From a virus (lineage: Duplodnaviria > Heunggongvirae > Uroviricota > Caudoviricetes), in the IMG/VR virus record IMGVR_UViG_3300031992_000008, positions 1 to 64,000 of that record: a stretch of 64,000 nucleotides of DNA, one strand, 5' to 3'. The notes below the pieces were generated by a model. That model searched no databases and was not told the origin of the DNA. It saw only the letters and a program-made list of their open reading frames with translations. Position 1 is the first letter of the stretch; each line of letters starts with the position of its first letter. A program made the position numbers and the translations under genes. Below, in pieces: positions 3,057-56,311 of the stretch.

Positions 3057-3086
3057 AAGGCATTTCTATAATGCCTTTCTTTTTTG
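3057..3086 (+). terminator. intrinsic terminator
   Basis: aaggcat ttctata atgcctt then TCTTTTTT. Confidence 0.65.
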
Positions 3087-3120
3087 GTTAGTATATTATA
3101 GTATGTACATTAAACCTTAA
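3083..3120 (+). promoter_or_regulatory. early-class promoter box (GTATATTATAGTATGTACATTAAACC)
   Basis: Motif conservation. Confidence 0.55.
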
Positions 3121-9517: not shown

Positions 9518-10266
9518 TCATCAAAGACGGAATATTTGTTCTGATTATGACGCTTGCGTCTATAATAGGATTACGCTTTCTACCAGTAACACCAGCTGTT
9601 AGCTTACTTGTAATCTTCACTGTCCTAGAGATTCTGATATCTATCTACTACAGGAAATCAAGATGCTTTAAGAATTCCTTCGGAGGAAACAGAAGGGAAA
9701 TTGGAACACTTGGATCTTTCTTCTTGTCATTCTGGATGTTCCTATTTGTTATTCCAACAATCCCATTTGATAAGTATGATGGCAAAATGCTATATATTGG
9801 TACACTCGTAGCTATACAGCTACTAATCACTATTGGAATAGTGCTATCGCTTATCGTTGGATATGCTGAAGGCGTCTTCGAAGAAGAAGCAAAAGCTAAA
9901 AAGGCAGAAAAATTATTGTCTGGAAAAGTCGTAGAGACCTATGTGAATGCTCAATTTAAGGATGGGATCATCTATCTTGCGAAGAGCATGAAAATAGGCG
10001 GAGATCCGTTGAGCACGTATCATCAGGATTTCCCTTCAGACAATGTATCCGCAATAGTCAAGACGACGAAAGATTCTGTAAGTTGGCGTACAGATGTCTA
10101 TCGGGAAGCGAAGAAACTTTGCCCGATTGTGAACAACGACCTGCTGTATGTGAGGTTTGCAAATCAAACATACACAGAAGCCTCAACAGGCAGATTGATA
10201 ATAACTGGAAGGCCTGATTATGTGAATAAGGTTCTTCTAAGCCTTAATCTCTCAACCTTAACCTAA
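9514..10266 (+). CDS. membrane protein (N-terminal about 4 TM helices plus C-terminal soluble domain)
   Basis: ATGA-coupled to upstream small TM gene; immediately upstream of PspA homologue. Confidence 0.6.
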   Translation: MIIKDGIFVLIMTLASIIGLRFLPVTPAVSLLVIFTVLEILISIYYRKSRCFKNSFGGNRREIGTLGSFFLSFWMFLFVIPTIPFDKYDGKMLYIGTLVAIQLLITIGIVLSLIVGYAEGVFEEEAKAKKAEKLLSGKVVETYVNAQFKDGIIYLAKSMKIGGDPLSTYHQDFPSDNVSAIVKTTKDSVSWRTDVYREAKKLCPIVNNDLLYVRFANQTYTEASTGRLIITGRPDYVNKVLLSLNLSTLT

Positions 10267-10289
10267 CAAACTCAAAGGAAAAACAAACA

Positions 10290-10955
10290 ATGAACATCTT
10301 CAAATTCTTCAAAATCAAGACAAAGACTGTTGGCGAAAAACTCGACAACCTCGTAACATTCGATGAAAAACTCCGCAACGCAAAGGAAGAGCTGCAGAAG
10401 TCTAAGGCAGCCGTTGTGGAAGATGCTGTGAACATTCATGAATCCGAAAAGATCGCAAAGAAGGCTCTTGAGCTGAATAATACGCAGATCGAAATCGTCA
10501 AGGGCAAGCTTGCCAAGGCTATCAAGAGCGGCGAAGATAACAAGGCAGAAGCCCTGTTCTCCAATCTTGAATCCTTGCAGACTGCCAACAAGATTCACGA
10601 AAAGTCTTACAATGACATTCAGAAGAGCCGTGAAAAGATCGATAAGAAGGTCGTAAGTATCGATAACAAGATCTTCAAGGTCTCTGCTAAGCTCGATGGT
10701 CTGAAGCAGGTTCGTGCAGCACAGGAAATGGTTGCAAAGCTTGCTGGTGTTTCCACTAACAACGCTGTCGGAAATGTTCTCAAGGACATCGAAGACTTCG
10801 TTGAACATGAAGAATGGAAACTCGAATCTAAGCAGGAAGTTCAGGATCTTCTCGACAAGAATGCCTCTACAGAAGACACTGAAGAAGAAGTTGAATCCAG
10901 CGCCCATGAACGCTTTGAAGCTTACAAGGCTAGCATTCTGAGCGAATCCAAGTAA
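10290..10955 (+). CDS. PspA/IM30/Vipp1 (ESCRT-III-like) family protein
   Basis: N-terminus MNIFKFFK..EKLDNLV and long coiled coil align to E. coli PspA (MGIFSRFADIV..); GC3-rich codons. Confidence 0.7.
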   Translation: MNIFKFFKIKTKTVGEKLDNLVTFDEKLRNAKEELQKSKAAVVEDAVNIHESEKIAKKALELNNTQIEIVKGKLAKAIKSGEDNKAEALFSNLESLQTANKIHEKSYNDIQKSREKIDKKVVSIDNKIFKVSAKLDGLKQVRAAQEMVAKLAGVSTNNAVGNVLKDIEDFVEHEEWKLESKQEVQDLLDKNASTEDTEEEVESSAHERFEAYKASILSESK

Positions 10956-10967
10956 TCCCTAAACATA

Positions 10968-11002
10968 CGGGGTGGGTCGAATGACTCACCCCATTTTTAT
11001 TT
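10968..11002 (+). terminator. intrinsic terminator after PspA gene
   Basis: ggggtgggtc gaat gactcacccc then ATTTTTATTTT. Confidence 0.65.
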
Positions 11003-11006
11003 TCCT

Positions 11007-11468
11007 ATGAATGAAAAGAGCAACTTCGAAAGAAATATTGTCATCGGAATCTTTATGCTTGTTCTTACTATCGTCGGAGTCATCTATTTGAATCTGTCGC
11101 AGAACTATAAGAACTCTCATGAAGAAGAGATGAAAAGACTAGAAATAGAGGCTATGAAGAAGCCAACAAAGGAAGCTATCAAGGCTGCTATCTTGGATTC
11201 AATCAAGATCAACCAAAGATACTTCATACAGACGGACAGCTTCACTCCACCGCCTCCTCCGCCACCATCAAAGAATGAAAAACCTAAAAAGCTTGTCTTG
11301 GAGTATGAGCAGAATCTCAAAGACGGAACAAGGAATCTAATCAGGTTTACAGCCGATAATCCTACTCCGGAAGAAAGAGTAGCTCTATACACGATGTTCG
11401 ATACAGAAGTATCGAAAGTCATAAACATCAAAGGACAAGACTTTAGCGTTAATCTGATGAGGGAATAA
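11007..11468 (+). CDS. bitopic membrane protein with poly-proline tract (153 aa)
   Basis: N-terminal TM helix; PPPPPPPS; follows terminator 10968-11002. Confidence 0.55.
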   Translation: MNEKSNFERNIVIGIFMLVLTIVGVIYLNLSQNYKNSHEEEMKRLEIEAMKKPTKEAIKAAILDSIKINQRYFIQTDSFTPPPPPPPSKNEKPKKLVLEYEQNLKDGTRNLIRFTADNPTPEERVALYTMFDTEVSKVINIKGQDFSVNLMRE

Positions 11469-12025
11469 TGAAACTAATGCCTTCTTTTTGCATGGAAGAA
11501 AAACATGGTCTAACACTTGGATTCTGTCTTCTTATATTGTTCATCATTGTGCCATGTATCGCTGCTAGCTGTGCCTGTGAATCATGCCAAGATGAATACC
11601 ATAAGAAGAAATCTGTAGAAGATAATTCCAGTGGTGTGACTGCTAGCAAGGTCAGCAAGATGACTAGATATGTGCATATTGGAGACATTGCAGTAATGTG
11701 CATCAATGGAAGAAGTGATGTCAATGTGTTAAATATTAAGACAGGAGATTACGTGCTAATCTCAGATACTAAGATAGACGTCTATCGCACTATTGGCACT
11801 GCGGTGAAGAAGCTATTTCCGGAAAGAAACATGGAAGACTACTACATCAAGGACGAATGTCTATCAAGCCTCAGAAAATCATGCCATCCTGTGAGTAATT
11901 GTATTAACGGAAATTTGTCTAGAGCAGATTGTCAAACAACCTGTAACCTGTACGATATCCCAGTACCATCTGACCGAGGAAACAAGGATGAACTAGTAGG
12001 AATGTACGGTATAACCATAAGGTAG
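11468..12025 (+). CDS. secreted/membrane-anchored cysteine-rich protein (185 aa)
   Basis: Hydrophobic signal-like N-terminus; about 12 Cys; TAATG overlap. Confidence 0.55.
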   Translation: MKLMPSFCMEEKHGLTLGFCLLILFIIVPCIAASCACESCQDEYHKKKSVEDNSSGVTASKVSKMTRYVHIGDIAVMCINGRSDVNVLNIKTGDYVLISDTKIDVYRTIGTAVKKLFPERNMEDYYIKDECLSSLRKSCHPVSNCINGNLSRADCQTTCNLYDIPVPSDRGNKDELVGMYGITIR

Positions 12026-12783: not shown

Positions 12784-12828
12784 CGTCTGAAAAGTAAAGT
12801 CTCATCTACCAAACAAGGAACCGTTGCG

Positions 12829-12859
12829 AATGCAGCGGTTTCTTTTTTATATTAAGAAA
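12829..12859 (+). terminator. intrinsic terminator
   Basis: aaccgttgc gaat gcagcggtt then TCTTTTTT. Confidence 0.6.
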
Positions 12860-13861: not shown

Positions 13862-14428
13862 ATGGTCAAAACAGCCGAACATAATAGAATGACATTTGAG
13901 GTCGTTCAATATACTGGAAAGAACTATGATGAATGTACTGCATTCATCGACAGTAATGGTATGTGGCCTCATATAGACGAGGATGCATCTTTTAGAATTC
14001 CTCCTAATAAAGCCATCGCAACCATGCGAACCAATGTCTTCCCCGGTGATTTTATCATCAAGGATGTATCTGGCTTGTTCATGAAGGATTGCTTCTATGC
14101 TACCTCTAAAGGAGCGTTTGAACTGTTCTTCAGACTGAAAGAATCAGAAAATGAAGTCCATGACTTTGGTTGGGCTCTTCGTCAGCTCAAGGCTGGAGAA
14201 AAGGTTCAGCGCAAAGGTTGGAATAGTAAGGGTATGTTCATTACCCTTCAGCCTGGATCCACAGTGAAGGGTGAACTCATGCGTAACGAACCTGCAAAGG
14301 AATTCTATAGCGGCAAACATTGTGTTATCATGTCTCATATAGATATGAAAGCGGCTGACGATTCCTACACAGTTGGTTGGAATGCAAGCCAAATTGACAT
14401 GCTAGCAGAAGACTGGCAGTTAGCTTAA
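13862..14428 (+). CDS. DUF2829 (Tad2-like anti-Thoeris sponge fold) fused to a about 100-aa N-terminal domain
   Basis: C-terminal FGWALRQLKAGEKVQRKGWNSKGMFITLQ...HIDMKAADDSY.VGWNASQIDMLAEDWQLA matches the DUF2829 signature (..KVRRKGWNGKGM...MKTADG...W.ASQTDMLAEDW..). Confidence 0.7.
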   Translation: MVKTAEHNRMTFEVVQYTGKNYDECTAFIDSNGMWPHIDEDASFRIPPNKAIATMRTNVFPGDFIIKDVSGLFMKDCFYATSKGAFELFFRLKESENEVHDFGWALRQLKAGEKVQRKGWNSKGMFITLQPGSTVKGELMRNEPAKEFYSGKHCVIMSHIDMKAADDSYTVGWNASQIDMLAEDWQLA

Positions 14429-14580: not shown

Positions 14581-15120
14581 ATGGAAACGGTAACACCAGA
14601 GAACATTGACGACTTTGTTGATAAGGCTATCAATGCTTGTTACGATAGGGCGAATCGAGCATTAGTCGATATAGCCAACAGACCAAGAGAAGTTCCGAAA
14701 CCAGAACCAAAACCGGAACCTAAACCAAAGCCTAAGCCAAAGCCTAAAGAATCTGAGGAGGATCCAGAAAGAATTCACGATAAGGATTTTAGAATCCTAG
14801 CGAAGAAGTATGGATTCGATATTAGAACCGAAGGCCCAGATGATGATGATGCACTGTACGCATATGATGCAATACATCCTACGGCTAATGACTGGTTCCT
14901 GAATGTAGCTATGCTTAAATCCAGTGGTGTAGCAATCGTTGGACGCAAGTATACTACAGAATCACGTAACAAAGGAATGGTCTTCAATATAATCGGTACG
15001 ACAGAATGTACTACTGTCAAAGAACTGGAAGAAGCCATCTGCACCATTGCCAAAAGTAGAGACGAATTCTTCAAACCTAAATCTACTAAGCGTAGTCAGA
15101 ACAGATCTCGTACTTGGTAA
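14581..15120 (+). CDS. hypothetical protein with (PK/PE)n linker
   Basis: AAGGAG SD; PKPEPKPEPKPKPKPKPKE repeat. Confidence 0.55.
   Translation: METVTPENIDDFVDKAINACYDRANRALVDIANRPREVPKPEPKPEPKPKPKPKPKESEEDPERIHDKDFRILAKKYGFDIRTEGPDDDDALYAYDAIHPTANDWFLNVAMLKSSGVAIVGRKYTTESRNKGMVFNIIGTTECTTVKELEEAICTIAKSRDEFFKPKSTKRSQNRSRTW
14696..14752 (+). repeat. coding low-complexity repeat (CCNAAR)n encoding (PK/PE)n
   Basis: Direct repetition in sequence. Confidence 0.7.
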
Positions 15121-15151
15121 CTAACAAACACACACAACAAGGAAAAAACAC

Positions 15152-16747
15152 ATGGAAATCAATGCACTTACTATCAGTGCCATTGCAGTGGGAGCTCTCC
15201 TGCTGCTCCTCGCCTTCATTTTCATTATTGGATACGTTAAAGCTCCGCCTGATACCGCATATGTCATTTCCGGTATCCGTAAACAGCCTCGCTTCCTCAT
15301 TGGTCGAGCTGGTGTTCGTATTCCGTTCTTGGAACAGAAGGACGAGCTTGTACTCAAGGCTATTCAAGTCGATGTAAATACGTCCGATGAAATTCCCACA
15401 GCGGATTTCATCAATATTACTGTCGATGCAAACGTCAACGTACAAGTTGATACTGAACTAGAAAAGAAAGAAGAAGAACGTTCTGGATTGCTTCAGAAAG
15501 CCGCTAGAAACTTCCTCAATCTTAAGGAAAAAGACATCATGGCAATGGTTCGACCAGTTCTTGAAGGTAATGTTCGAGAAATCGTTGGCAAGATGAATCT
15601 CAAAGCTATGGTGAATGATCGCCAGAAATTCTCTACTCTGGTTTCTGAAAACGTGCAGCCTGACCTTGCTGCCATGGGCTTAAAGCTCGTGTCTTTTAAT
15701 GTGCAGAACTTTAAGGACAAGGAAGGCACTATTAGGAACATGGGTATCGACAATATTGAAGCAATCCGTAAGGATGCTGAAATCGCAAAGTCAAATGCCC
15801 AGAGAGATATTCGCATTGCTAAGGCTGAAGCTGACAATGAAGCCAGCATTGCAGAAGTAAAGTCTAAAACTGCAGTCGCCGAACGTGAGACTGATCTTGC
15901 TATCAAGAAGGCAGACCTCAAGAAGAAGTCTGATATCCAAGAAGCAATCGCCGATGCTGCTAAGGGCATCGAAGCCGCTAATCAGCAGAAAACCTTGAAT
16001 ATCACGGAAGCCGAAGCTGAAACTGCAAAGCAGATGAAGCTCATCGAAGTCCGTCAGGAAGAAGCTAATGTTACCGAAAAGGAACTTGTTGCCAAGGTGA
16101 TTCGTCCGGCTGAAGCTGCAAAGCAAGCCACTATCATTAAGGCTGAAGGTGAACAGAAGGCTAAGCTCATTGCTGCTGAAACCAACCTTGAAACCACCAA
16201 GAAGAATGCTGATGCTGAAAAGTATCAGCGTGAACGTGAAGCTGAAGTCAAGCTGTTCAATGAACAGAAGGATGCGGAGGCCGAGCGCTACAAACAAGAG
16301 CAAAACGCCGAAGGTGTCAAGGCTATGGCTGACGCTGACCTTAAGACTGCTCTTGCTAAGGCTCAAGGTGTTGAAGCTAACGGTAAGGCTGAAGCTGCTG
16401 CTATCGAAGCTAAGGGTCTCGCCGAAGCCGAAGCCAAGGACAAGATGGCTGATGCTATGGCTAAGTTTGGCGATGCCGCTAAGCAAGACCTTACTCTTGA
16501 AACCGTTAAGGCGTTTGTTGCTGTTCTTCCGGAAGTTGCTGGTAACATTACCAAGCACTTCGAGAAGGTTGGTAACTACACTATCTACGGTGAAGGTGGC
16601 GGTGCTAAGCTGGTTGGTGATGCAACTCAGGCAATGTCTCAGATTATTGCATCCGTCAAGGAAGCAACTGGTCTTGATGCCGCAGGTATCTTGAACAGCT
16701 TCCTTGGTAGCCGTACTGCACTCGCAGTAGCTGACAAGAAAGAGTAA
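15152..16747 (+). CDS. flotillin (SPFH/band-7 domain, FloT/YuaG-like), 531 aa
   Basis: N-terminal TM helix then YVKAPPDTAYVISG SPFH start; VSFNVQNFKDKEGT..IAKAEADNEA..KGLAEAEAKDKMADAMAKFG aligns almost residue-for-residue with B. subtilis FloT; EA-rich coiled coil. Confidence 0.9.
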   Translation: MEINALTISAIAVGALLLLLAFIFIIGYVKAPPDTAYVISGIRKQPRFLIGRAGVRIPFLEQKDELVLKAIQVDVNTSDEIPTADFINITVDANVNVQVDTELEKKEEERSGLLQKAARNFLNLKEKDIMAMVRPVLEGNVREIVGKMNLKAMVNDRQKFSTLVSENVQPDLAAMGLKLVSFNVQNFKDKEGTIRNMGIDNIEAIRKDAEIAKSNAQRDIRIAKAEADNEASIAEVKSKTAVAERETDLAIKKADLKKKSDIQEAIADAAKGIEAANQQKTLNITEAEAETAKQMKLIEVRQEEANVTEKELVAKVIRPAEAAKQATIIKAEGEQKAKLIAAETNLETTKKNADAEKYQREREAEVKLFNEQKDAEAERYKQEQNAEGVKAMADADLKTALAKAQGVEANGKAEAAAIEAKGLAEAEAKDKMADAMAKFGDAAKQDLTLETVKAFVAVLPEVAGNITKHFEKVGNYTIYGEGGGAKLVGDATQAMSQIIASVKEATGLDAAGILNSFLGSRTALAVADKKE

Positions 16748-16781
16748 AACTAAAAGATTTTACCCATAAAACCTCGATGGG

Positions 16782-16816
16782 GAGAGGCTCTAGAAATAGA
16801 GTCTCTCTTTTTTTCG
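16782..16816 (+). terminator. intrinsic terminator after flotillin gene
   Basis: gagaggctct agaaat agagtctctc then TTTTTTT. Confidence 0.7.
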
Positions 16817-16879
16817 TAAAATTCTATGCTCCGACATTATATTATTAATGGCCTTATAATCCTATAAGACAGTGTTACT

Positions 16880-17087
16880 AGCCCACAAAGACTAGTGCAA
16901 CCGTCATATCTAACCGGAAGATATGACTAACTGTGCGTTTGTTCCATTCGCACATAAAAGGAAAATGGATATTATTGAGACAACGGTACTGTCTCATAGG
17001 TGATCCGCATCTTATGTATATTTGATGCGATAAGGTCACACCGAACGGATAACGGTAAATATTATCCAAAAGGCAAGGAGGTACTTC
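16880..17087 (+). ncRNA. multi-hairpin structured region (candidate ncRNA or riboregulatory leader of tiny ORF)
   Basis: Five consecutive stems: gtcatatct/agatatgac, tgtgcg/cgcaca, tgagaca/tgtctca, cgcatc/gatgcg, ggataa/ttatcc. Confidence 0.3.
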
Positions 17088-17180
17088 ATGTACAGATACC
17101 GCTTCTTCCTCAGCAACCTCGACGTAGTCGAAGTCTATGCAGACTCATACGCCGATGCCATCGCTGAATTCCTCGTCTAA
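17088..17180 (+). CDS. tiny ORF (30 aa), not in ORF track
   Basis: Strong AAGGAGGT SD 7 nt upstream; GC3-rich codons like highly expressed genes; preceded by a multi-hairpin leader. Confidence 0.3.
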   Translation: MYRYRFFLSNLDVVEVYADSYADAIAEFLV

Positions 17181-17234
17181 AAAAGACAGGAATAGGAACT
17201 CTCGTGCGCAGACAGCGAGAATAAATAATTAGGC

Positions 17235-17264
17235 GAGAATCTCTAAAGATGGCTTAGAGAATCT
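17235..17264. repeat. 11-bp inverted repeat (GAGAATCTCTAA n7 TTAGAGAATCT), 1 mismatch
   Basis: Seen in sequence; 80 nt upstream of DUF1874 gene. Confidence 0.6.
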
Positions 17265-17345
17265 AGGGAATGCAAAACCACTTAACTGTGGCTTCTCGAA
17301 ACTGTGCTGGCCCAATGACCAGAAACCGTTACAAAGAGGTGTCCT

Positions 17346-17639
17346 ATGACAACAATTTGTAATGCCTTCAGCCTCCAGATGATGAAGGAATTCCCTGCGA
17401 CAATCACGATTGAAGAAATCGCTGAACCGTCCAAGGAAGAACTTTCGAAGATGGATTCGGCTGTTGGTCATGCTGACACTGCAGCTGTCCTTGGTGTGCC
17501 GTTCGTTCGCAAGAACGTTCAGCTCGAAAAAGGCGATGTTGTGGTTGTCGCTCAGCTTACTGGAGGCCGTCTCCCGGAAGGTTCTAGAACCCTACCGGAA
17601 GGCTTTGCCTTTAAGTGGCTGAAGGTGACCATCGGCTGA
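17346..17639 (+). CDS. DUF1874 (STIV B116-like) family protein
   Basis: MTTICNAFSLQM... and SAVGHADTAAVLG resemble the DUF1874 signature (..NS.L., SAIGHEsTA.LL); AGAGGTG SD. Confidence 0.5.
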   Translation: MTTICNAFSLQMMKEFPATITIEEIAEPSKEELSKMDSAVGHADTAAVLGVPFVRKNVQLEKGDVVVVAQLTGGRLPEGSRTLPEGFAFKWLKVTIG

Positions 17640-17688
17640 TAGCTGAAGAGCTACGCACGAATACAATGCCAATGTATAAACGTGCGAA

Positions 17689-17732
17689 TAAAAAAAAGGA
17701 TAGCAGCCTATGCTGCGTCCTTTTCTTTTTTC
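17689..17732. terminator. bidirectional terminator between convergent genes
   Basis: A8 run, hairpin aggatagcagc ctat gctgcgtcct, T-rich run. Confidence 0.5.
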
Positions 17733-18010
17733 CTAGCTTTAGATCTCCTGCAAGCTTCTAGATACTTAGCATATCTCACAGGATCCTTTTTCATAGCTTC
17801 ACGCTTCTTAGCATTACGCTCACGTTCTTTTTCCTTAAACAATGGATCAGTAGCCTTTCTATGGTCATATGATTTCTTTGATCTTACGGCATCTGGAGTT
17901 CTGCCTTTGCTCTTCCGTTTCTTTTTTACAGGAGCTGAAATGTATGCATTAATAAATGATAAAGAGGATTCTGTCAGTCGTGCTTTTGTATCCTTGTATA
18001 TGTCGCTCAT
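17708..18010 (-). CDS. small highly basic Lys/Arg-rich protein (100 aa), possible DNA-binding or internal virion protein
   Basis: AGGAAGG SD; KKKRKSKGR..KKREAMKK..RRSKARKKEK; immediately downstream of capsid-like gene. Confidence 0.6.
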   Translation of the reverse strand: MSDIYKDTKARLTESSLSFINAYISAPVKKKRKSKGRTPDAVRSKKSYDHRKATDPLFKEKERERNAKKREAMKKDPVRYAKYLEACRRSKARKKEKDAA

Positions 18011-18013
18011 AAT

Positions 18014-18050
18014 ACCTTCCTATAATAGTCTCATTCTTATATATTTTTTC
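18014..18050 (-). promoter_or_regulatory. early-like promoter box on minus strand (TATATAAGAATGAGACTATTATAGG)
   Basis: Resembles GTATATAATTTAATAGACT box; precedes SD of basic-protein gene. Confidence 0.35.
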
Positions 18051-18063
18051 TTTTTTATAAATA

Positions 18064-18109
18064 AAAAGAAAAAAAAAATAAATGGCCTAGACCGAAGTCT
18101 AGACCATTT
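18064..18109 (-). terminator. strong intrinsic terminator after capsid-like gene (12-bp stem, CGAA/TTCG tetraloop, T10 on minus strand)
   Basis: aaatggcctagac cgaa gtctagaccattt preceded by A13 on plus strand. Confidence 0.75.
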
Positions 18110-18125
18110 AAAGTCTTCACAACAA

Positions 18126-19964
18126 TTAGTGGATGAACGTTTCCGTAGGCAAGTACGGGCTCGTTCCAGCAAACGAATAGAAATTCGCGCTATTGTTGGT
18201 AATTGTCACACGACCAGCACCCGGAAGCACGTCAACGTAAGCGTAACGGCGAGAGGTGAGGATCGTCGGAACATAGGTATTGCGCGGGCTGTTGTAGCCA
18301 GAGCCAGCCTGTTCGAGCATGAAGCTATAGGTGTACAGCTTGTAAGTCATCTGATCCTGAACGGTCGGGATGAAGAGCACACGGATAGCACCCTGCGGGA
18401 TGTTCGGGGAGGACACAACCTTCCAGCTGTTGATGCCCTGATACTGACCGAAGGCAATGTTAGCATTCACGCCAGCATATTCGGACTGACCGTTACCCTG
18501 ATAGACCCAGTTGATTTCCGGCACGAGGGCGGCATCCAACGGGTTGCAAGCGGCAACGAAGTAACCCTGTTCATAATGGTACATGTTGATGATGCTCATA
18601 GAGAGATGGTCGAGCACCTTGCCAAGCATCTTGGGCCATTCAGCCGGGTTCAGCTGGTAGTTACCAACGGGCTTAGCAGAGAATGCACGAACGAAGTCAC
18701 CATTCGGAGCCTGTTCGATAGCATCATCGATAACTTCATCCATGAAGTTCACACCATCCAAGTCCATCTTCTGAGCGAGGAAGCTAGAGAGGATTTCGAC
18801 GAGCTTGGAGACACCATTCAGAGTGAACATACGGAGCAAATCCGTGATGTATTCATTCGGAACCGGAGCTTCAAGGTGTTCGCCAGTACCGATGTGGATT
18901 TCCTTATCGCGGATATCGAAGCCAACCTGAAGCGTGCTGTTGTTCATAACAGAGGACACGAAGGCCTTGATCATCACGAAATTGAGCTTGTCGCCCTGAT
19001 CCATGAGAGTGAGACGACCAGTCTTCACGTCAACGTCACCGTAGACGGAGTCAGTGAGGGTCACAATCACAGTACCAGCTTCGCCACCAACGCAAGTGGC
19101 ATCAACTTCGACATCGAGCGAGATCACACCCTTGATGCCACCACGACGAGTACCGCATTCGATCTTGCAGTTCTTGACGAGGTCATTGGCAGTGAGGGCT
19201 TCACCATTGAGGGTGAGTTCGGTAGCAAGTTCAGTAGCAACGCCATTGTAGAACACGGTGTCGCCAGCGGCAGGAGCCTTGAACTGAGCGCAAATGATAG
19301 AAACATTCACGTCAACTTCATCGTTGTCCTTAACCATGGCAAGAGCGTCAGAATACTTCTGAGTGACAGTGCCATAGGTGGTCGTGGTCTTGTCATTACC
19401 GTATTCGTCCACATCCTTACCAGTGAGGAGGTTCATGGAGAAGCAACGGTTCGTGAACTTGAACTTCACATCTTCAGCAAGGCGAACCTTAGAGACAGCG
19501 GTATCGATGTCCATGAGGTTTTCAGGCACATAGTGCTTGTTGCCCTGCAAGTCCTTGAGCCAAGGATGGAGGTAGTTGATGGTGAACTTCGGCTTTTCGA
19601 CAGCTTCGGTCGGGAGAGCCTTGTTCATAGCGGTACGAGCCCAGCTCTTACGGAGCATCGGGGTCTGAAGGAAGGACATCGGAGAAACAGTACCGAGAGC
19701 AGCTTCTTCAAGAGCTTCAAGGCGAGAGGCTTCAGCGATGGTCTTGAACTGCTCGGCTTCTTCGTCATTAAGACCCTGAGCGAGCATTTCAGTATAACGA
19801 CCAAAGAGGGAGTTGTCGGACATCACATCTTTAAAGTCGTCGGCGTTGAACACGTTGATGTTGCTAGCGGAGAATTCTTCAGCCACTTCACGAAGAGTAG
19901 AGGTAAAGGAATCACTCACAGCAGACACCTTCGAGGACGGTTGCATGTAAGAAATGTTAGACAT
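18126..19964 (-). CDS. major capsid-like structural protein (612 aa); function tentative (alternative: nuclear-shell-like protein)
   Basis: Strongest codon/GC bias in window; AAGGAAG SD; followed by 12-bp-stem CGAA-tetraloop terminator; Ala/Glu-rich N-terminal segment resembling a cleavable propeptide. Confidence 0.6.
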   Translation of the reverse strand: MSNISYMQPSSKVSAVSDSFTSTLREVAEEFSASNINVFNADDFKDVMSDNSLFGRYTEMLAQGLNDEEAEQFKTIAEASRLEALEEAALGTVSPMSFLQTPMLRKSWARTAMNKALPTEAVEKPKFTINYLHPWLKDLQGNKHYVPENLMDIDTAVSKVRLAEDVKFKFTNRCFSMNLLTGKDVDEYGNDKTTTTYGTVTQKYSDALAMVKDNDEVDVNVSIICAQFKAPAAGDTVFYNGVATELATELTLNGEALTANDLVKNCKIECGTRRGGIKGVISLDVEVDATCVGGEAGTVIVTLTDSVYGDVDVKTGRLTLMDQGDKLNFVMIKAFVSSVMNNSTLQVGFDIRDKEIHIGTGEHLEAPVPNEYITDLLRMFTLNGVSKLVEILSSFLAQKMDLDGVNFMDEVIDDAIEQAPNGDFVRAFSAKPVGNYQLNPAEWPKMLGKVLDHLSMSIINMYHYEQGYFVAACNPLDAALVPEINWVYQGNGQSEYAGVNANIAFGQYQGINSWKVVSSPNIPQGAIRVLFIPTVQDQMTYKLYTYSFMLEQAGSGYNSPRNTYVPTILTSRRYAYVDVLPGAGRVTITNNSANFYSFAGTSPYLPTETFIH

Positions 19965-20045
19965 TGTTTGTCTTCCTTATTTTTAGGTGAAACAGAGCCA
20001 AAACATAAAGTTATCTTGACTCAGAAACGAAAAAACCTATTTATA

Positions 20046-20057
20046 CTAGGATCCTAG
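20046..20057. repeat. perfect 12-bp palindrome CTAGGATCCTAG in divergent promoter region
   Basis: Between capsid-like (minus) and rusA (plus). Confidence 0.6.
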
Positions 20058-28891: not shown

Positions 28892-28932
28892 ATCTTCTTA
28901 ACTAATAAATGCACGAAGATAGAGAGGACTAT

Positions 28933-30843
28933 ATGAGCGATAAGTACAAACTAGTTTCAGTCAAAAAATTGACTACAAAGACTGGTCTGAATTATTACAA
29001 TAATGGTGTACTGACCGTATACTACAAGAACGGTAAGCGTACATATGAATTTGATGAAGATCCGACTGTGAGATTCCATGTCTCTAAGCCTGAATTTGTA
29101 GAGAAGCATGGAGACAATCCTTACGTCGTTCCTCTGGAAGAAACTGAAGAGATCGAATGCAAGTATAAGGAAGTCTATGAAGCCATTATTGACTATCAGG
29201 CTACATTTGATCCTGAAGCTGCTGTAAAGAATTCGAAGTTGCTTGATAGCTTTAGAAAGCGTAAAGTTAGTCCCGAGAATTTCTTTCTCTGCCCATTCGT
29301 CCATGGCGCTGACGTTGATCTCACTGACCACTATATTCGCAGGTTCAACGATGAAAAAATCGCCCCTAATGGTGGAGAAGACCAAGATGTTCGTCTGAAC
29401 AAGGTGTTCTGGGATATTGAATGCGATAACTACATCGTAAGACGATTTGTTGAAGCGGATGAAGCTATCACTCCTATTAATGCTATATCTTGTTTCGATA
29501 GTAGAACGGCTACGCTCGTATTGAGATTCCTTGATGATACCATCGAAGGACAGTATGTGGCAAAGAATCCTCAGATTGACAAGTTCAAACACGAGATCGA
29601 TGCTATTACTGCGAAGTATGAAGCCGAGTGGAACGAAATTCAGACTAAAATCTTCAAAGAAATAAAGAAGCCACATATCAATGTCGAAATCAAGTTCTAT
29701 GGGTATGAAATAGATCTTATTCAGGATCACTTCAATGATCTCAACTACAGGTTTGGTGCAGACGTTGTCATAGCATTCAACCATGGCTTTGACTGGGGTT
29801 TCACTATCAAGCGTCTTGAGAATCTTGGGTTCGATCCGGGCGATATAATTGCTCCTAAAGAATTTCCGAAGGATTATCGTAGGGCTTACTACATTGCGGA
29901 CAGATTTGCAAAGGATATTAAGAAGCGCCATGACGCATTCTATATTCCTGCTTTCTATTGCATTATCGATATGCAGCAGAACTATTATGCAATCCGTAAC
30001 ATGAGCCCAGAAGACTATACTCTTGACTGGTTGGCTGAAAGTGTTATCGGTGTCCGTAAGGTTGAACACGATGATATTGAAATGGCTGACTTCCCATACG
30101 AAGACTACGAGTTGTTCTGTAAATACTCAGGACAGGATACTCTGGTTATGTACTGGATTGAAGAGAAAGTCAGTGACGTTGATACGATCATGCTATTCAG
30201 AGGTCTAACACATACTCGTGAGAACAAGGTGTTGACCAAGACTACAATGCTTCGTAACTTCATCGAGTGGTTCTTTATCAACAAGTGCGATCTGGTGCTG
30301 TCTAACAACCGTACAAGATTGTTCAATAAGATCTACGACAAGAAGCGAGCCAACGGAGATAATCCTATCAAGTATCCAGAGCTAGAGCCGTATAGGAAAG
30401 ATGCTATGGGCGCCGACTATACCGAAGTAGGCGAAGCTGAAGATGAAGACGAATTGTTAAATGATGATCTTGAAGAAATCGAGTCTCAGGTTACAAAGAT
30501 TCAAGAAGAAAAGAAAGTCAAGTTCAAGGGTGCATTCGTGGCTGACCCTAATCTTCTTATCGCAAACGGTATTAAGATTTTGGGTAAGGCTAGTACATTG
30601 ATCTATGACTTTGTATGTGACTCTGACTTGTCTTCTCTATATCCGTCTATTAAGATTGCGTGGAACCTCTTTATCACGACTATGCTTGGAAAGATTCTTC
30701 CGAAGAGCAATACGAATGATATCGAATACTCTGCAACTCTTGCCAATTATATCATGACTAGAAACGATATCAAAATTGGCGAACAATATTTTGGACTTCC
30801 GTCGCACACGGAATGGACAAAGATGATTCTCTCTCGTGCATAA
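28933..30843 (+). CDS. family-B DNA polymerase, N-terminal part only (3'-5' exonuclease domain plus motif A)
   Basis: Exo I VFWDIECD, Exo II NHGFDWGFTI, Exo III YSGQDTLVMY, motif A DFVCDSDLSSLYPSI; ORF stops about 65 aa after motif A; motifs B and C absent. Confidence 0.7.
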   Translation: MSDKYKLVSVKKLTTKTGLNYYNNGVLTVYYKNGKRTYEFDEDPTVRFHVSKPEFVEKHGDNPYVVPLEETEEIECKYKEVYEAIIDYQATFDPEAAVKNSKLLDSFRKRKVSPENFFLCPFVHGADVDLTDHYIRRFNDEKIAPNGGEDQDVRLNKVFWDIECDNYIVRRFVEADEAITPINAISCFDSRTATLVLRFLDDTIEGQYVAKNPQIDKFKHEIDAITAKYEAEWNEIQTKIFKEIKKPHINVEIKFYGYEIDLIQDHFNDLNYRFGADVVIAFNHGFDWGFTIKRLENLGFDPGDIIAPKEFPKDYRRAYYIADRFAKDIKKRHDAFYIPAFYCIIDMQQNYYAIRNMSPEDYTLDWLAESVIGVRKVEHDDIEMADFPYEDYELFCKYSGQDTLVMYWIEEKVSDVDTIMLFRGLTHTRENKVLTKTTMLRNFIEWFFINKCDLVLSNNRTRLFNKIYDKKRANGDNPIKYPELEPYRKDAMGADYTEVGEAEDEDELLNDDLEEIESQVTKIQEEKKVKFKGAFVADPNLLIANGIKILGKASTLIYDFVCDSDLSSLYPSIKIAWNLFITTMLGKILPKSNTNDIEYSATLANYIMTRNDIKIGEQYFGLPSHTEWTKMILSRA

Positions 30844-35677: not shown

Positions 35678-37648
35678 ATGAACTTGAAACTTTCCGAAAT
35701 GGTAGCCCGAAAAGTTTCATATCAATTAACTAAAAATACTAGCTTCCTTAAGATACACCAATTCCTTAAGGAAAAAGGAATCAAGAACAATAAGTTCTTT
35801 CTAGCATTATATGATAAAGATCTAGAGAATATAGACCCTAGGGCTGCTAACCTTCCTAAAAAAATTAAAGCTAAGATTATTACAGAATGCAGAGTGAATC
35901 CTTGGTACTTCTTCAGAGAAGTCGTAAGAATCCCTGTGCCGGGTGGTGACATCCCCTACGAACTCCACCGTGGTAACTTAGCTCTGAACTACCTGTCGTT
36001 GAACAATATCGATACCATTGTCTTAATGCCTCGTCAGCATGGTAAGACTATTGGCGCTGTGGTATTGTTCGTATGGCTTTTCTTTTTTGGTACTAAGAAT
36101 ACTACTGTAACCTTTATGAACAAGAAGTATTCTGATGCTCAGGTTAACCTCAAGAGATTCAAGAATATTGTTGAATTGCTACCCAAGTGGATGGTCGAAG
36201 CTAGAAGCCCGAGAGAAGACCAAGAATCTTCTACGACTTTCTCAAGAATGACCAGATTGAAGAATGTTATCACGGCTATGCCAGCTGCTACCTCTCCTGA
36301 AGATGCTGATAAGCTTGGTCGTGGTCTTACGATGCCTTGTTGGTACTTTGACGAAATTGCGTTCGCCAAGTATAATGAAATCATCTATACGGCTGCTGCT
36401 CCGGCTGTGTCTCAGGCTGCTATCGAAGCTGAAAAGACTGGTGTGCCTCACTTCAAGCTGTTCACTACAACGCCTAACTCTATCGACGTAGATGAAGGTG
36501 GATGGTGCAAACATGAAGTCATTGAAGCTGCTTGCGAATTTGATGAAGAGATGTACGATGTTCCTTCCAATCTTCTCAGACAATATGTCTATGATAGATC
36601 CACCAATAACTTTGTGCATATCGAATTTACTTGGAAGGAACTTGGAAGAGATGAGAAGTGGTATGAACAACAGTGTAGAGACCTTCAGTACAATAGACAG
36701 AGAATCAAGCGTGAAGTTGACCTTGAATGGACTCTTTCGGCTGATAAGTCTCCATTCTCTGAAGAAGAACTTGAAAGAGTATCGCATTTCGTTATCCCCA
36801 AGGAAAAGGAATATACCCTTAGAATTGGTGATAGCGGAAACCATAAGCTTACCGTGTTAGAGAATGTAGACTTCTTTAAACCAGTAATACTTGCAGTTGA
36901 CGTTGGCGGTGGACAGGGATCTGACTTCTCTGTTGTCCACATGCTTGATATCGACGATTTCCACGAAATAGGTTATTTTGCTTCTAATAGAATTAACCCA
37001 ATCCCGTTCGCAAGGATTATTATAAGTATAGTGAGGAATCTGTTCTCTAACTCTGTTCTCATAGTGGAAAGAAACAGCTATGGCCTTGATGTCATAACTA
37101 CGCTACTTGAGAATGACTTTACTAGAAACAAGGTATTCTATCGTACTATCAATAATCCGATTCCGAACCAAGGTAACAAGATTCAAAGGGTATATGGTAT
37201 CGATACTACTTCTGGCTCTAGAGATATCATGATCTCTAATTGCTTCATGTATGTAGCTGACGAGCCTCACCTATTTAGATGCAGACATACTTATAATGAA
37301 CTCAAGACTATCGAAAGAAAGAATAACGGCAAGGTAGAACATGCTCAAGGAGCACACGATGACTTCTTGATGTCGTATCTAATCGGTCGTTATGGAGCTT
37401 CATTTGAGAGCTTTAAGATGTTCAAGAGAAGAGTATGTGCTTCGTCTCTTAGGGAACGTAAGGATGTAGCTAGATCGGAAGAGAAAAATACTGTGGTCAT
37501 AGAAACGACTAGAAGTATTGAAGACTACCTTGATAGGGGTGACTCTAAAATGAGGAGAGTCTTTTCTCTCAATTTCGATAATAAGCCGAACTTATCAATG
37601 AAAACTGCAAAACAAGGATTTGACATATGGGGAAATACCAAGACATAG
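35678..37648 (+). CDS. terL: terminase large subunit
   Basis: Walker A LMPRQHGKT, Walker B CWYFDEIAF, RNaseH-like nuclease Asp block AVDVGGGQGSDFSVVHMLD; AAGGAG SD. Confidence 0.85.
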   Translation: MNLKLSEMVARKVSYQLTKNTSFLKIHQFLKEKGIKNNKFFLALYDKDLENIDPRAANLPKKIKAKIITECRVNPWYFFREVVRIPVPGGDIPYELHRGNLALNYLSLNNIDTIVLMPRQHGKTIGAVVLFVWLFFFGTKNTTVTFMNKKYSDAQVNLKRFKNIVELLPKWMVEARSPREDQESSTTFSRMTRLKNVITAMPAATSPEDADKLGRGLTMPCWYFDEIAFAKYNEIIYTAAAPAVSQAAIEAEKTGVPHFKLFTTTPNSIDVDEGGWCKHEVIEAACEFDEEMYDVPSNLLRQYVYDRSTNNFVHIEFTWKELGRDEKWYEQQCRDLQYNRQRIKREVDLEWTLSADKSPFSEEELERVSHFVIPKEKEYTLRIGDSGNHKLTVLENVDFFKPVILAVDVGGGQGSDFSVVHMLDIDDFHEIGYFASNRINPIPFARIIISIVRNLFSNSVLIVERNSYGLDVITTLLENDFTRNKVFYRTINNPIPNQGNKIQRVYGIDTTSGSRDIMISNCFMYVADEPHLFRCRHTYNELKTIERKNNGKVEHAQGAHDDFLMSYLIGRYGASFESFKMFKRRVCASSLRERKDVARSEEKNTVVIETTRSIEDYLDRGDSKMRRVFSLNFDNKPNLSMKTAKQGFDIWGNTKT

Positions 37649-40668: not shown

Positions 40669-43600
40669 ATGGCTGCAGATTCTCTACCGAAATATATGCA
40701 CCCGCATTCGAGTGCACGTATTATCGATAATGCCGTTCTGACTGTCTCGTCTAGCGGCTTGACCAATATGTTCATTGCCCTTGAAGCTGAAAAAGGTATG
40801 CCGAATGAAGCCACCTATATCACTACCCAGAGTGAGTGGATTTTCAACTTTGGCGAACCCAACTACAGCAAGTATGGACAAGGAGCATTGAACGCTCTTA
40901 ACTACATCAACGCAGGTGGTGGTGCATGGGTGATCCGTGTTGTGCCTGATGATGAAAGATTCGCTTCGCTCTCTCTTGGCATCGGCTATCGTGCAAACCA
41001 GCCCTTTACCAATGATGAAGAGAAGTACAGACGTCTTGAAATGACTTCTGAACAGATTAAGTTGTGGAATGCTGCCCAGACTGATGATACCCTCAAGTAT
41101 GCAATCGATAAGAAGTCTGGCAACTTTGCTATTCTTCCGTTGTTCTACATCGAAGAAAATGGCAACATCAACGCTGCTTTGAAGCTCCAGACTCTTGACG
41201 AAATTGAATCTTACAAGCTCAAGAACACTGATGCTAGCAAGACCATCAATGCCGTTGCTAAGAAGAATGTGATTACCTATTCTAATCCGTTCATCGAAGT
41301 CTCCGGTGTCTTTGATCCTGAAAACGAAGAACTGAGATTCCTCGCAGACAGAGCTTATACCGAATTCGTTGAAGGTCAGGAAATCGGTGGTATTGAATTC
41401 GGCAATGTTGCTGAAGAAAACTGCAAGGCCTATATCCGTATCGATAAGTACTTTGCTACTGATGCAAATGATGACACGATCAAGGATAAGACTGGCAGTG
41501 TCAAGACTTTTGACTACTATGATGCCGCTTACAAGGCTGCTCAGTCCAGCAATCAGAATGCTGAAGAAAGCGATGGTTCTGGTGAATTCGATCCGGCTGA
41601 TCATGTGTTTGCGTTCTCTGGTACGATCCGTATCTATTCCGAAGCTGCCGATGGACAGCCGTTTGGCGAAGTGATCTATGATGTGCTCGCAGCTATTTTC
41701 GGTACCGATGCACAGACCGTAACAAAGGGTAAGGCAGAATTCAATACTGAACTCAATGGCGACGCTAGCTTCTCTGATGATATTCAGAAGGGTAAGAAGC
41801 ATACTGCTAAGTGGCTTCAGGAAAACCGTAATGAATACTCCAACGCTAGAACTGTCTACAAGAAAGTCAAGCCTAGCGAATTCTTCGGTAGCGCCAATAC
41901 GATCGTTAATACCAAGATTCTTCTGAATATTGGTACTCCCGATTCTCAGACTTGGGATTACTCCTTCGAAGTTTACAAGGAAAGTCTGCCCGGTCAGTAC
42001 ATTCCTGTCGCATCTTCTCTCATTGACAACAGCACTGCCTTTACGGAAGTAGAGCTCACTGAATGGAATGCCCTGCATGGTACATTCTATAAGCTCGGCG
42101 GTAAGGCTGATCCTGAAAGCGATTTTGAAGATGTCGTTGACAGCACTCAGCAGAAGATTGTTAACAAAGAACCGTCTACGGGTGCTACCAAGAACTCCAC
42201 GCTTTACTATGTGAAGTATGTGACGACTGGTGAACCTGTCTACTCGACCTCTATTACTGAATCTGAAGCTTACAGATTCAACAGAGTTAAGGCTACATCT
42301 GAAGATGAAACCGTGACCTTGTCTACTCCGGCTGAATTCCCGGCTTCTGCTATGAACACCAAGTATGCAAGCCTCTTGAATACTAAGGTGTCCTTCAGCT
42401 CCGATGTTTCTAAGGAAGGTCACTGGGAAGCTACTGTTCCTGAAGGCGCTACCCTGACGGATGCAGTTGACTTCATCAACTTCTTCTTCAGCGCTCCTTC
42501 GATGATTGAAACTAAGGACAACTCTAACGCTGGTGAATTCCTCGTTAACGTTTCCTTCAGCGAAAATGCTTACATCGGTGAAAGCGAATATGTGTCTATC
42601 AAGGGTACTGCTCTTGGAAACCTCTTCAAGCGTGCTGACGATGGTGCTATTCAGGACAATAACAATGAAAATGTGACGGATGATACCAATGAAGGTATCT
42701 CTGGTACTTCTACTGGCGAATCTGACGAACCGAAGTACATTCTTCGTACTGACATCAAGCCGTCCGAAGTTCCTAGCACTGTTGCTAAGTTCATTGTCAA
42801 CGGTAGCTTCCAGCCTGTCGAAATCGACAACATTCCGGCATCTGCTCTTCTCTGCTTGCTTGCTGATAAGACCAACAGAGAAAATGGTACTGCTGAACTC
42901 AAGACCGATCTTGGCGAAAATTTCGAATTCGAATATGCCAATACTTGTGTCTTGCTGGCTGGAATCGATTCTGTTGCTGGTTTCAATGGCACGATTACGC
43001 TTGCTTTTGTTTCTGACTCTATCGAAAACTTGGCTATCAAGGCTTATGACGAAGCTGTTAGCGGTGGTGAAACCTCCATTACGGCTACTCAGATCCCCGG
43101 TGAAAAGGTTCCGTACGTCAGATACTCTGACAACTTTGATGGTTCTATCTTTGAACCTAACTATGACTACATTGAACGTATCTATGATACCGTTGGTCTC
43201 GTGACTACGACTTACACGGCCTTCGATTATCCTGAAAATGCCAACTACTTCCCGTACAATATCCAAGATGGTGTAAAGGTGAAGACCCCGGAAATCTGGG
43301 CTGGCATTGAAAGTGCTAAGGAAGGCTACTCTGTCGCTGCTGCTAGAGACGAAATCAAGGATGTTGATCTTCAGGATCTCAAGCTCGATAAGACTTGCTT
43401 TGCTGAATTCTGCCGCTTCTTGCCCAAGGGCTCTGGTAAGTGGTACAACAGACTCGGTGTGTCGCTCTCCTACGATGACAACTTCGACGGTACCTATCCT
43501 GATTGGAGTATGTTCAAGCTCACTGTGTTCGAAAGAAGTAACGGTGAAGAGATCTCTCGTGAACAGTTCGCTGTCTCGTTGGATCCTGATGCTGTGTCCG

Positions 43601-44937: not shown

Positions 44938-44945
44938 AGTAAATA

Positions 44946-44984
44946 GAATTCCTGTATCCAAAAGATACAGGAATTTTATATTTT
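44946..44984 (+). terminator. intrinsic terminator after giant structural gene
   Basis: aattcctgtatc caaaa gatacaggaatt then TTATATTTT. Confidence 0.65.
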
Positions 44985-45010
44985 GAACTTTCAAATAGTA
45001 AGGAGTTACT

Positions 45011-51840: not shown

Positions 51841-51907
51841 ACCTAGAAAAAAAAATAAAATTCTGTATCAATAAATATTGGTAACTAATTATTGCAAGGA
51901 GTTTATT

Positions 51908-56256: not shown

Positions 56257-56298
56257 TAGGAGAATCTTGGAAAGTTTCTGGGATTCTCCTATTTTAAC
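56257..56298 (+). terminator. stem-loop upstream of RNAP beta fragment (terminator or attenuator)
   Basis: taggagaatc ...16 nt... gattctccta then TTTTAACC; weak T-run. Confidence 0.35.
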
Positions 56299-56311
56299 CA
56301 AAGGAAGATAC

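Follow-up and report, generated by a model that had tools for sequence, protein, structure and literature searches.

The open reading frame (ORF) at positions 15152-16747 of a 64,000-nucleotide stretch of viral DNA (positions 1 to 64,000 of the IMG/VR record IMGVR_UViG_3300031992_000008, hereafter the window) is a genuine full-length flotillin. Judged from its gene content, the window is a distant, uncultured jumbo phage of the AR9/PBS1 type, and sequence comparisons indicate that the flotillin has been held for a long time in this phage lineage, where it is still functional and under strong purifying selection. The most economical reading of its role, to which we give close to an even chance, is that this long-kept scaffold of the phage's own keeps the host envelope working until lysis. 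An earlier note on this DNA had described the gene as a full-length flotillin recently captured from the host; the first half of that description stands and the second does not. The gene and its parts are the following.

15152-16747, plus strand: flotillin gene, ATG at 15152 and stop codon ending at 16747; 531 amino acids plus the stop codon.
15140-15144, plus strand: Shine-Dalgarno-like AAGGA, 7 nucleotides 5' of the flotillin ATG (read from the sequence).
15173-15229, plus strand: N-terminal transmembrane or anchor helix, residues 8-26, ISAIAVGALLLLLAFIFII (Kyte-Doolittle profile; AlphaFold2).
15233-15802, plus strand: SPFH/Band_7 domain, residues 28-217, with an 8-residue insertion inside TELEKKEEERSG (Pfam PF01145; AlphaFold2).
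15728-16465, plus strand: coiled coil rich in Ala, Glu and Lys, residues 193-438, two long helices (composition; model; flotillin-2 alignment).
16355-16654, plus strand: flotillin C-terminal domain, residues 402-501, which holds KGLAEAEAKDKMADAMAKFGDAAK (Pfam PF15975; flotillin-2 alignment).
16779-16817, plus strand: intrinsic terminator with a 14-pair stem, a 4-nucleotide loop and a T-run (terminator scan; sequence reading).

All the sequence and fold features that define membership of the flotillin family were found in this protein: an SPFH domain, the Flot C-terminal domain, an N-terminal anchor, an Ala/Glu coiled coil, and nearest matches that are flotillins. Residues 8-26 form the sole hydrophobic peak of the ORF (Kyte-Doolittle 19-residue mean 3.02), and residues 5-27 are helical in the AlphaFold2 model. 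The string GYVKAPPDTAYVISG occupies residues 27-41. Pfam Band_7 (PF01145) matches residues 52-217 with an E-value of 2.2e-17 and 64.1 bits against a cutoff of 23.6, and an alpha/beta SPFH domain is modelled at residues 28-190 with a predicted local distance difference test score (pLDDT) of 80-90. Residues 218-440 consist of Ala, Glu and Lys to 53% and contain 31 EA/AE dipeptides; in the model, two very long helices (193-316 and 322-438) are followed by a helical C-terminal region. Pfam Flot (PF15975) matches residues 402-501 (E-value 3.1e-7, 31 bits against a cutoff of 27), and KGLAEAEAKDKMADAMAKFG occupies residues 421-440. The transmembrane helix, the start of the SPFH domain and the EA-rich coiled coil are all present as the earlier note had described them, and so is a terminator of the gene's own, whose stem-loop (16779-16810) begins 32 nucleotides past the stop codon and comprises 14 pairs followed by TTTTT. 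Searches of the protein against PHROGs and PADLOC gave no family match in either collection.

Within the SPFH superfamily, flotillins are the nearest relatives of the protein by sequence and by fold. In a sequence search of the PDB, all five significant matches were mammalian flotillin-1 or flotillin-2 (best E-value 1.9e-36). The alignment with flotillin-2 comes in two stretches, the second of which (residues 376-512) includes the C-terminal block. The top Foldseek matches of the model were the flotillin cage complexes 9l3g and 9bq2 (E-value 4e-20, 486 aligned columns), followed by HflK/C, prohibitin, stomatin, erlin and vault structures with E-values of about 1e-11 or weaker. With both Pfam profiles above threshold and flotillins first in the PDB and Foldseek searches, the identification as a full-length flotillin is confirmed.

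The protein is not, however, an equivalog of Bacillus subtilis FloT, since it scores 212.3 bits on the NCBIfam FloT equivalog model NF058507, under the cutoff of 700 bits. It is 31% identical to FloT with 15% gaps by BLASTP; the B. subtilis FloT sequence used for this comparison was validated only by its 852 bits on NF058507. A C-terminal signature block nearly identical to that of FloT had been reported previously. When KGLAEAEAKDKMADAMAKFGDAA of the phage protein is aligned with KGLAEAEAKEKIAAAFEQYGQAA of FloT, the identical stretch is the nine-residue KGLAEAEAK only, so that the claim is true of this core only. A looser form of the block also aligns in human flotillin-2, which makes it a family-wide motif and no sign of recent descent.

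Hallmark genes of phages lie to either side of the flotillin. PHROG matches were obtained for a major head protein (18126-19964, minus strand), a DNA polymerase (28909-30843), a large terminase (35678-37648), a tail sheath (40669-44937, plus strand), a helicase (51878-53350) and the beta subunit of a split multisubunit RNA polymerase (56267-58204). The window's head protein shares 28-30% identity with its counterparts in Listeria phage LPJP1, Staphylococcus phages S6 and PALS_2 and Bacillus phages AR9 and PBS1, and the RNA polymerase beta subunit is 36% identical to that of PBS1/AR9. A megablast of the window found no near-identical DNA among deposited phages, and scans for transfer RNAs (tRNAs) and against Rfam detected no tRNA or ribosomal RNA (rRNA) gene and no Rfam match in the window. 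A gene identical to one of the window's, a neighbour of the flotillin, sits on a contig of 235,300 bp, and an independent assembly (L169) has the same gene order as the window. The hallmark genes and the AR9, PBS1, S6 and LPJP1 relatives bear out the earlier statement that the flotillin is encoded by a phage and not by a host chromosome.

Two of these structural genes are mirrored by long stop-free frames on the opposite strand. An antisense ORF of 1436 amino acids (40684-44994, minus strand) mirrors the tail sheath gene of 1422 amino acids, and one of 791 amino acids (17682-20057, plus strand) mirrors the major head gene. The sheath and head genes belong to the most GC-rich of the window's genes, and the PHROG matches mark their plus-strand and minus-strand frames, respectively, as the real ones.

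A search of 5.8 billion proteins recovered one close relative of the flotillin, on a metagenome contig of 2 kb (95% identity by BLASTP, 92.7% over the full length); all others were at most 55% identical. Across 185,579 bacterial species-representative genomes, the best flotillins reach 43-48% identity. Viral contigs of 56-424 kb in IMG/VR carry flotillins with up to 50-54% identity to that of the window, and those of syntenic relatives of the window phage are 50-55% identical. For instance, L089, L004 and L087 encode major head proteins that are 82, 65 and 64% identical to the window's, together with five to six common adjacent genes and a flotillin; the gene layout of L167 resembles that of L004.

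In a neighbour-joining tree of 181 sequences and 479 columns, which included 80 sequences from bacterial genomes, the window flotillin belongs to a clade of 11 members, all of them viral or metagenomic. None of the 80 bacterial-genome sequences falls inside it, and the split was recovered in 100 of 100 bootstraps (neighbour-joining, non-redundant set of 61 sequences). The 8-residue insertion in the SPFH domain is common only to P0001 and P0002, besides the window flotillin, in an alignment of 16 sequences. Recurrent gene families in the neighbourhood of flotillins show zero overlap between viral and bacterial loci.

Compared with a 93% relative (L166), the window gene is 88.9% identical at the nucleotide level, with a ratio of nonsynonymous to synonymous substitutions (dN/dS) of 0.074 at a synonymous divergence (dS) of 0.64. 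Such a ratio against an independent copy shows that the gene is real and no chance ORF. The earlier remark that the gene is among the most GC-rich in the window is literally true, its GC content of 0.464 ranking fifth of 75 ORFs. GC content at third codon positions (GC3) is ordinary (0.432, rank 26 of 73; mean 0.412, standard deviation 0.067), and that at first positions is raised (0.612 versus a mean of 0.468), as are Ala, Glu and Gly codons, Ala making up 16.6% of the residues. The excess of GC therefore comes from amino-acid composition and not from foreign codon usage.

A bacterial record in the comparison calls for separate mention. L009 (NZ_JAFWOM010000011.1), a metagenome-assembled genome (MAG) contig labelled 'Fibrobacter sp.', encodes at 9924-11720 a protein with a full-length match to the phage-only family phrog_15344 (E-value 7e-107), and its flotillin groups with viral sequences in the tree. 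By these signs the locus may belong to a prophage or to a phage contig that was binned wrongly. Because it carries a phage-only PHROG family, the 'Fibrobacter' sister group is treated with caution.

Flotillin genes are rare in cultured phages but, on the contigs surveyed, not in uncultured large phages. Matches were found in nine of 50,697 deposited phage records, none of them close. The best are 36-45% identical and come from unannotated gut 'Bacteriophage sp.' contigs, several others are short fragments, and the 'flotillin family protein' of Vibrio phage KIT04 is 25% identical over residues 28-247 only, that is, the SPFH part. In IMG/VR, at least 238 contigs encode a relative of the flotillin; they belong mostly to large phages and to several clades, and among the best 80 of the 238 the median length is 105 kb and 43 reach 100 kb or more. 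The earlier view that flotillin is rarely phage-encoded is thus accurate for deposited phages and does not extend to uncultured large ones. Representative loci of the other viral clades contain T4-type topoisomerase II, RNA ligase, CCA-adding enzyme, NAMPT and strong PHROG-only families. One flotillin (P0079) is highly prevalent in assemblies from pig gut, and its gene adjoins those of a T4 neck protein and of a RegA-type regulator. In the tree, viral clades are interspersed among bacterial ones, which points to several transfers.

The flotillin family and phage SPFH ORFs were already known, and the conserved jumbo-phage lineage is undescribed in the literature searched. SPFH/Band 7 ORFs were tabulated in 2006 for the T4-like phages 44RR, Aeh1 and RB43, with weak Band_7 matches only (E-values 1e-5 to 1e-6) and no function given (PMC1524935), and one is listed, again with no function given, for the Xanthomonas jumbo phage X1 (PMC13384950). 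A comparative review of jumbo phages (PMC7824862) leaves flotillin, SPFH and PspA unmentioned, and the metagenomic surveys of jumbo and huge phages recovered in the literature search contain zero occurrences of flotillin or SPFH. A paper on the Perkons phage proved to concern integration into the host floA gene and not a phage flotillin. A paper on Pseudomonas aeruginosa SPFH proteins does not mention phages.

The flotillin comes last in a unit of co-directional genes that runs between two terminator-like hairpins, at 12815-12844 and 16779-16810. The features upstream of it are the following.

12815-12854, plus strand: terminator-like hairpin (12815-12844, 13 pairs) plus T-run, probable 5' boundary of the flotillin unit (terminator scan; sequence reading).
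13862-14428, plus strand: Tad2-like (Thoeris anti-defence 2) gene, in the flotillin's terminator-bounded unit (Pfam PF11195).
14581-15120, plus strand: ORF of 179 amino acids with a PK/PE-repeat linker (PKPEPKPEPKPKPKPKPK), ending 31 nucleotides 5' of the flotillin start (ORF listing).
10290-10955, plus strand: PspA/IM30(Vipp1)-like gene, 221 amino acids, 4.2 kb upstream of the flotillin (PF04012, sub-threshold).

The Tad2 domain was identified by PF11195 at residues 101-187 of its ORF (E-value 9.5e-24, 84.2 bits against a cutoff of 25). The ORF at 14581-15120, which is probably co-transcribed with the flotillin to judge from its position, has no match in Pfam, PADLOC or PHROGs; it recurs in L169, which represents this phage in a different sample, and was not found in the distant relatives L089, L004 and L087.

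The window contains a highly conserved extended element, TTGATTTGTATATTATAgAATAGA, at 129-154, 2500-2525 and 3074-3099 (plus strand), 26-30 nucleotides 5' of the gene starts at 180, 2553 and 3129. It resembles the AT-rich consensus of the AR9 early promoters used by the virion RNA polymerase, AAATATATATTAT-(6N)-G. No full copy of it precedes the flotillin unit. The short core of the element is weakly enriched, with 13 matches against 6.1 expected, a number that two of 100 shuffles reach. The AR9 late motif, AACA-N6-TA/G, is absent upstream of the window's own head, sheath and terminase genes, and is therefore not transferable to this phage.

The gap that follows the flotillin (16748-17345, 598 nucleotides) is unusually long, has no Rfam match and contains a TATATTAT element at 16838-16845 and an ORF of 30 amino acids (17089-17181) that has AAGGAGG as a strong ribosome-binding site. 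A small GC-rich ORF (0.507) at 17346-17639 (plus strand), which also lies between flotillin and major head gene, is 75% identical to an ORF of L087 and matches phrog_5063, a family with no function assigned, and weakly the PADLOC model Csx16 (E-value 7e-4).

The ORF at 10290-10955 is a probable PspA/IM30-like protein. PF04012 matches it over nearly its full length with an E-value of 6e-5 and 23.2 bits, under the cutoff of 33.9, and all four members of the PspA-like family lie under that threshold (best E-value 9e-6). It has only four homologues in the 5.8 billion proteins, of which one, 84% identical, is labelled PspA by the Joint Genome Institute (JGI). PspA, IM30 and Vipp1 belong to the ESCRT-III superfamily, whose fold combines a long hairpin of helices with shorter helices behind it. 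The AlphaFold2 model of the ORF contains a helical hairpin (helices 14-79 and 83-151) with pLDDT above 90, and the nine best Foldseek matches are Vipp1 or PspA, with a TM-score of about 0.5 over some 200 residues and E-values of 3e-3 to 3e-2. Sequence and profile searches of the PDB returned stathmin-like helices only. The second membrane scaffold that the earlier note had seen in PspA is consequently less firm than was stated: the predicted fold ranks Vipp1/PspA first and the profile match falls short of its cutoff.

Genes of nicotinamide adenine dinucleotide (NAD+) metabolism, encoding NAPRTase or NAMPT, NAD synthase and NadD/NUDIX-like proteins, occur near the flotillin in unrelated phages, namely at L167 16552-21512, L168 7384-12344, L173 12951-14237 and L118 8402-10153.

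With respect to function, a phage that has its own RNA polymerases and probably shuts off its host is read most economically as also supplying its own membrane scaffold. The phage flotillin would insert in the cytoplasmic membrane of the host by means of its N-terminal helix during infection, and, by self-assembly through the coiled coil and the C-terminal domain, would build a large SPFH cage at the membrane's inner face. The microdomains so formed, under phage control, would keep the membrane fluid, intact and organised during the shutdown of host gene expression and the long cycle of a jumbo phage, possibly in joint action with the nearby PspA/Vipp1-like protein. This mechanism is drawn from the flotillin family, namely the cage structures 9bq2 and 9l3g and work on B. 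subtilis FloT and FloA (PMC7360373, PMC4312047). According to the respective papers, B. subtilis flotillins control membrane fluidity (PMC7360373), and in the same species PspA is held at the membrane by an SPFH protein as its tether (PMC8581546).

Several observations weigh against a long-kept scaffold with this role. In L089, L004 and L087 the flotillin flanks yielded no PspA-like gene, so the flotillin-PspA pair is not conserved. An NfeD (YuaF-like) partner was not found beside the phage flotillin by Pfam on the upstream ORF or among the annotations of seven representatives of recurrent neighbour clusters and three flanking ORFs of L004, a coverage that did not include a scan of all flanks with a hidden Markov model (HMM) dedicated to NfeD. 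Divergence is greater for the flotillin than for the head protein (51% versus 82% identity in L089), and the two disagree as to the nearest relative: the head protein is closest to that of L089 (82%), and the flotillin is closest to those of L004 and L087 (about 60% over trimmed columns, versus 52% for L089). This discordance suggests, at the level of sequence, either faster or uneven evolution of the flotillin or gene exchange among related phages. The tree is a neighbour-joining and not a maximum likelihood one. The monomer model has a mean pLDDT of 66.8, with only moderate confidence beyond the SPFH domain. Finally, the literature searched contains no functional study, experiment or expression data for any phage flotillin.

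Among the other explanations, an unlikely one is counter-defence: the flotillin, possibly with the PspA/Vipp1-like protein, would stabilise or repair the membrane against abortive infection (Abi) effectors that disrupt it, for example those of Thoeris or CBASS with transmembrane segments, and would form an anti-defence block with Tad2. The flotillin and the Tad2-like gene do share one terminator-bounded unit, and the PspA-like gene lies 4 kb upstream. In an iterated HMM search, 13 of 82 viral loci and none of 80 bacterial loci had a Tad2-like gene no more than 10 kb from the flotillin, and such a gene is directly upstream of the flotillin in two separate lineages, that of L089 and the unrelated one of L153/L161. 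NAD-salvage genes, which in L167/L168, L173 and L118 lie less than 10 kb from the flotillin, with NAPRTase-like matches in L110 and L100 as well, could offset NAD-depleting defences. However, the Tad2-like/DUF2829 domain is common in phages and the adjacency may be due to chance, so that the proximity is a lead only. The link is purely positional, and no PADLOC model matches the flotillin. To our knowledge, no anti-defence protein is an SPFH protein. A more specific version, in which flotillin and the PspA/Vipp1-like protein constitute a membrane-integrity module against membrane-attacking Abi effectors that shares its location and expression with Tad2, the signal sponge, appears quite unlikely; if true, SPFH scaffolds would be a new class of phage counter-defence.

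Regulation of a protease is improbable as well. The phage flotillin would here cage or activate the host FtsH in the manner of HflK/C, and so control host differentiation or the turnover of membrane proteins, be they the phage's or the host's. The flotillin overproduction effect described in B. subtilis reportedly works through FtsH. HflK/C-FtsH structures (7wi3, 9cz2) are indeed among the fold matches of the phage protein, but it is much closer to flotillins (E-value 4e-20 versus about 1e-11). Overproduction of flotillin alters cell differentiation and shape in B. subtilis (PMC3892786). Pfam and PHROGs turned up no FtsH-related gene or motif nearby.

Decidedly improbable is a role in superinfection exclusion or in the timing of lysis, by which the scaffold would block the entry of competitor DNA or sequester holins. 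Many phage membrane proteins have such roles, and the sole support in this case is that a membrane protein is encoded apart from recognisable structural genes. No holin or endolysin adjoining the flotillin was identified with Pfam and PHROGs. Moreover, known exclusion proteins are small and fast-evolving, unlike this conserved scaffold of 530 residues.

It is very improbable that the gene, essentially a passenger, is a host FloT captured recently; the earlier note had suggested such a capture from a supposedly high similarity to FloT of Firmicutes. The KGLAEAEAK core is identical in B. subtilis FloT, the nearest bacterial homologues belong to Clostridia (Lachnospiraceae, Acetatifactor), and the GC content of the gene is above the window mean. 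Recent capture is nevertheless contradicted by the low identity to FloT (31%, 212 versus 700 bits) and to any bacterial genome match (at most 48%), by the phage-only clade recovered in every bootstrap, by an identity of only 50-55% even to orthologues in syntenic phages, by the dN/dS of 0.074 over a dS of 0.64, by the ordinary GC3 and by the loose presence of the block in human flotillin-2. The chance that the window is a bacterial contig or mis-assembled host DNA is negligible, given the phage hallmarks on both sides, the recurrence of the arrangement in L169, L089, L004 and L087 and the lack of tRNA and rRNA genes.

Flotillins are classic organisers of membrane microdomains; the structure of their cage was solved in 2024-2025, and their role in bacteria is debated. 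A distinct flotillin lineage in jumbo phages, together with the viral contigs counted above, makes it appear that large phages repeatedly need to remodel or safeguard the host membrane. The assembly of SPFH cages could be modelled with phage flotillins in a compact form that takes a single gene, and they would give a new angle on how phages of long cycle maintain or defend the host envelope until lysis, and the jumbo-phage lineage is amenable to experimental test.

Different known systems can be compared with the phage flotillin. The SPFH ORFs of the cultured phages 44RR, Aeh1, RB43, X1 and KIT04 belong to the same superfamily and are also phage-encoded, but none has been demonstrated to be full-length or has been studied functionally. 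HflK/C, prohibitin, stomatin, erlin, QmcA-YbbJ and the major vault protein have in common with it an SPFH fold with a helical extension, which in these proteins builds a membrane-attached cage. However, these other cage formers align over 210-330 columns only (E-values 1e-11 to 1e-8) and are devoid of the flotillin C-terminal domain.

The closest bacterial relatives come from Clostridia of gut and rumen (Lachnospiraceae, Acetatifactor, Ruthenibacterium) and from Fibrobacter MAGs, with flotillins that are 43-48% identical over nearly the full length. They lie outside the phage clade, and their own neighbours, such as D-Tyr-tRNA deacylase and an AI-2E transporter, are wholly unlike the phage locus. 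B. subtilis FloT (YuaG) shares architecture and length class with the phage protein, including a transmembrane helix directly before the SPFH domain and the identical KGLAEAEAK core, and yet the two are only 31% identical.

The human flotillin-1/2 cage (9bq2, 9l3g) presents the same order of parts, that is, SPFH domain, long coiled coil and C-terminal flotillin domain. Its C-terminal EA..GxAEAE...YGDAAK block is conserved in the phage protein, at about 25% overall identity. With respect to anchoring, the phage protein has a true N-terminal transmembrane helix, whereas animal flotillins are anchored otherwise, by hairpin and acylation. Flotillin-1/2 is a hetero-oligomer, whereas the product of the single phage gene, known here from its sequence and a monomer model, would be a homo-oligomer.

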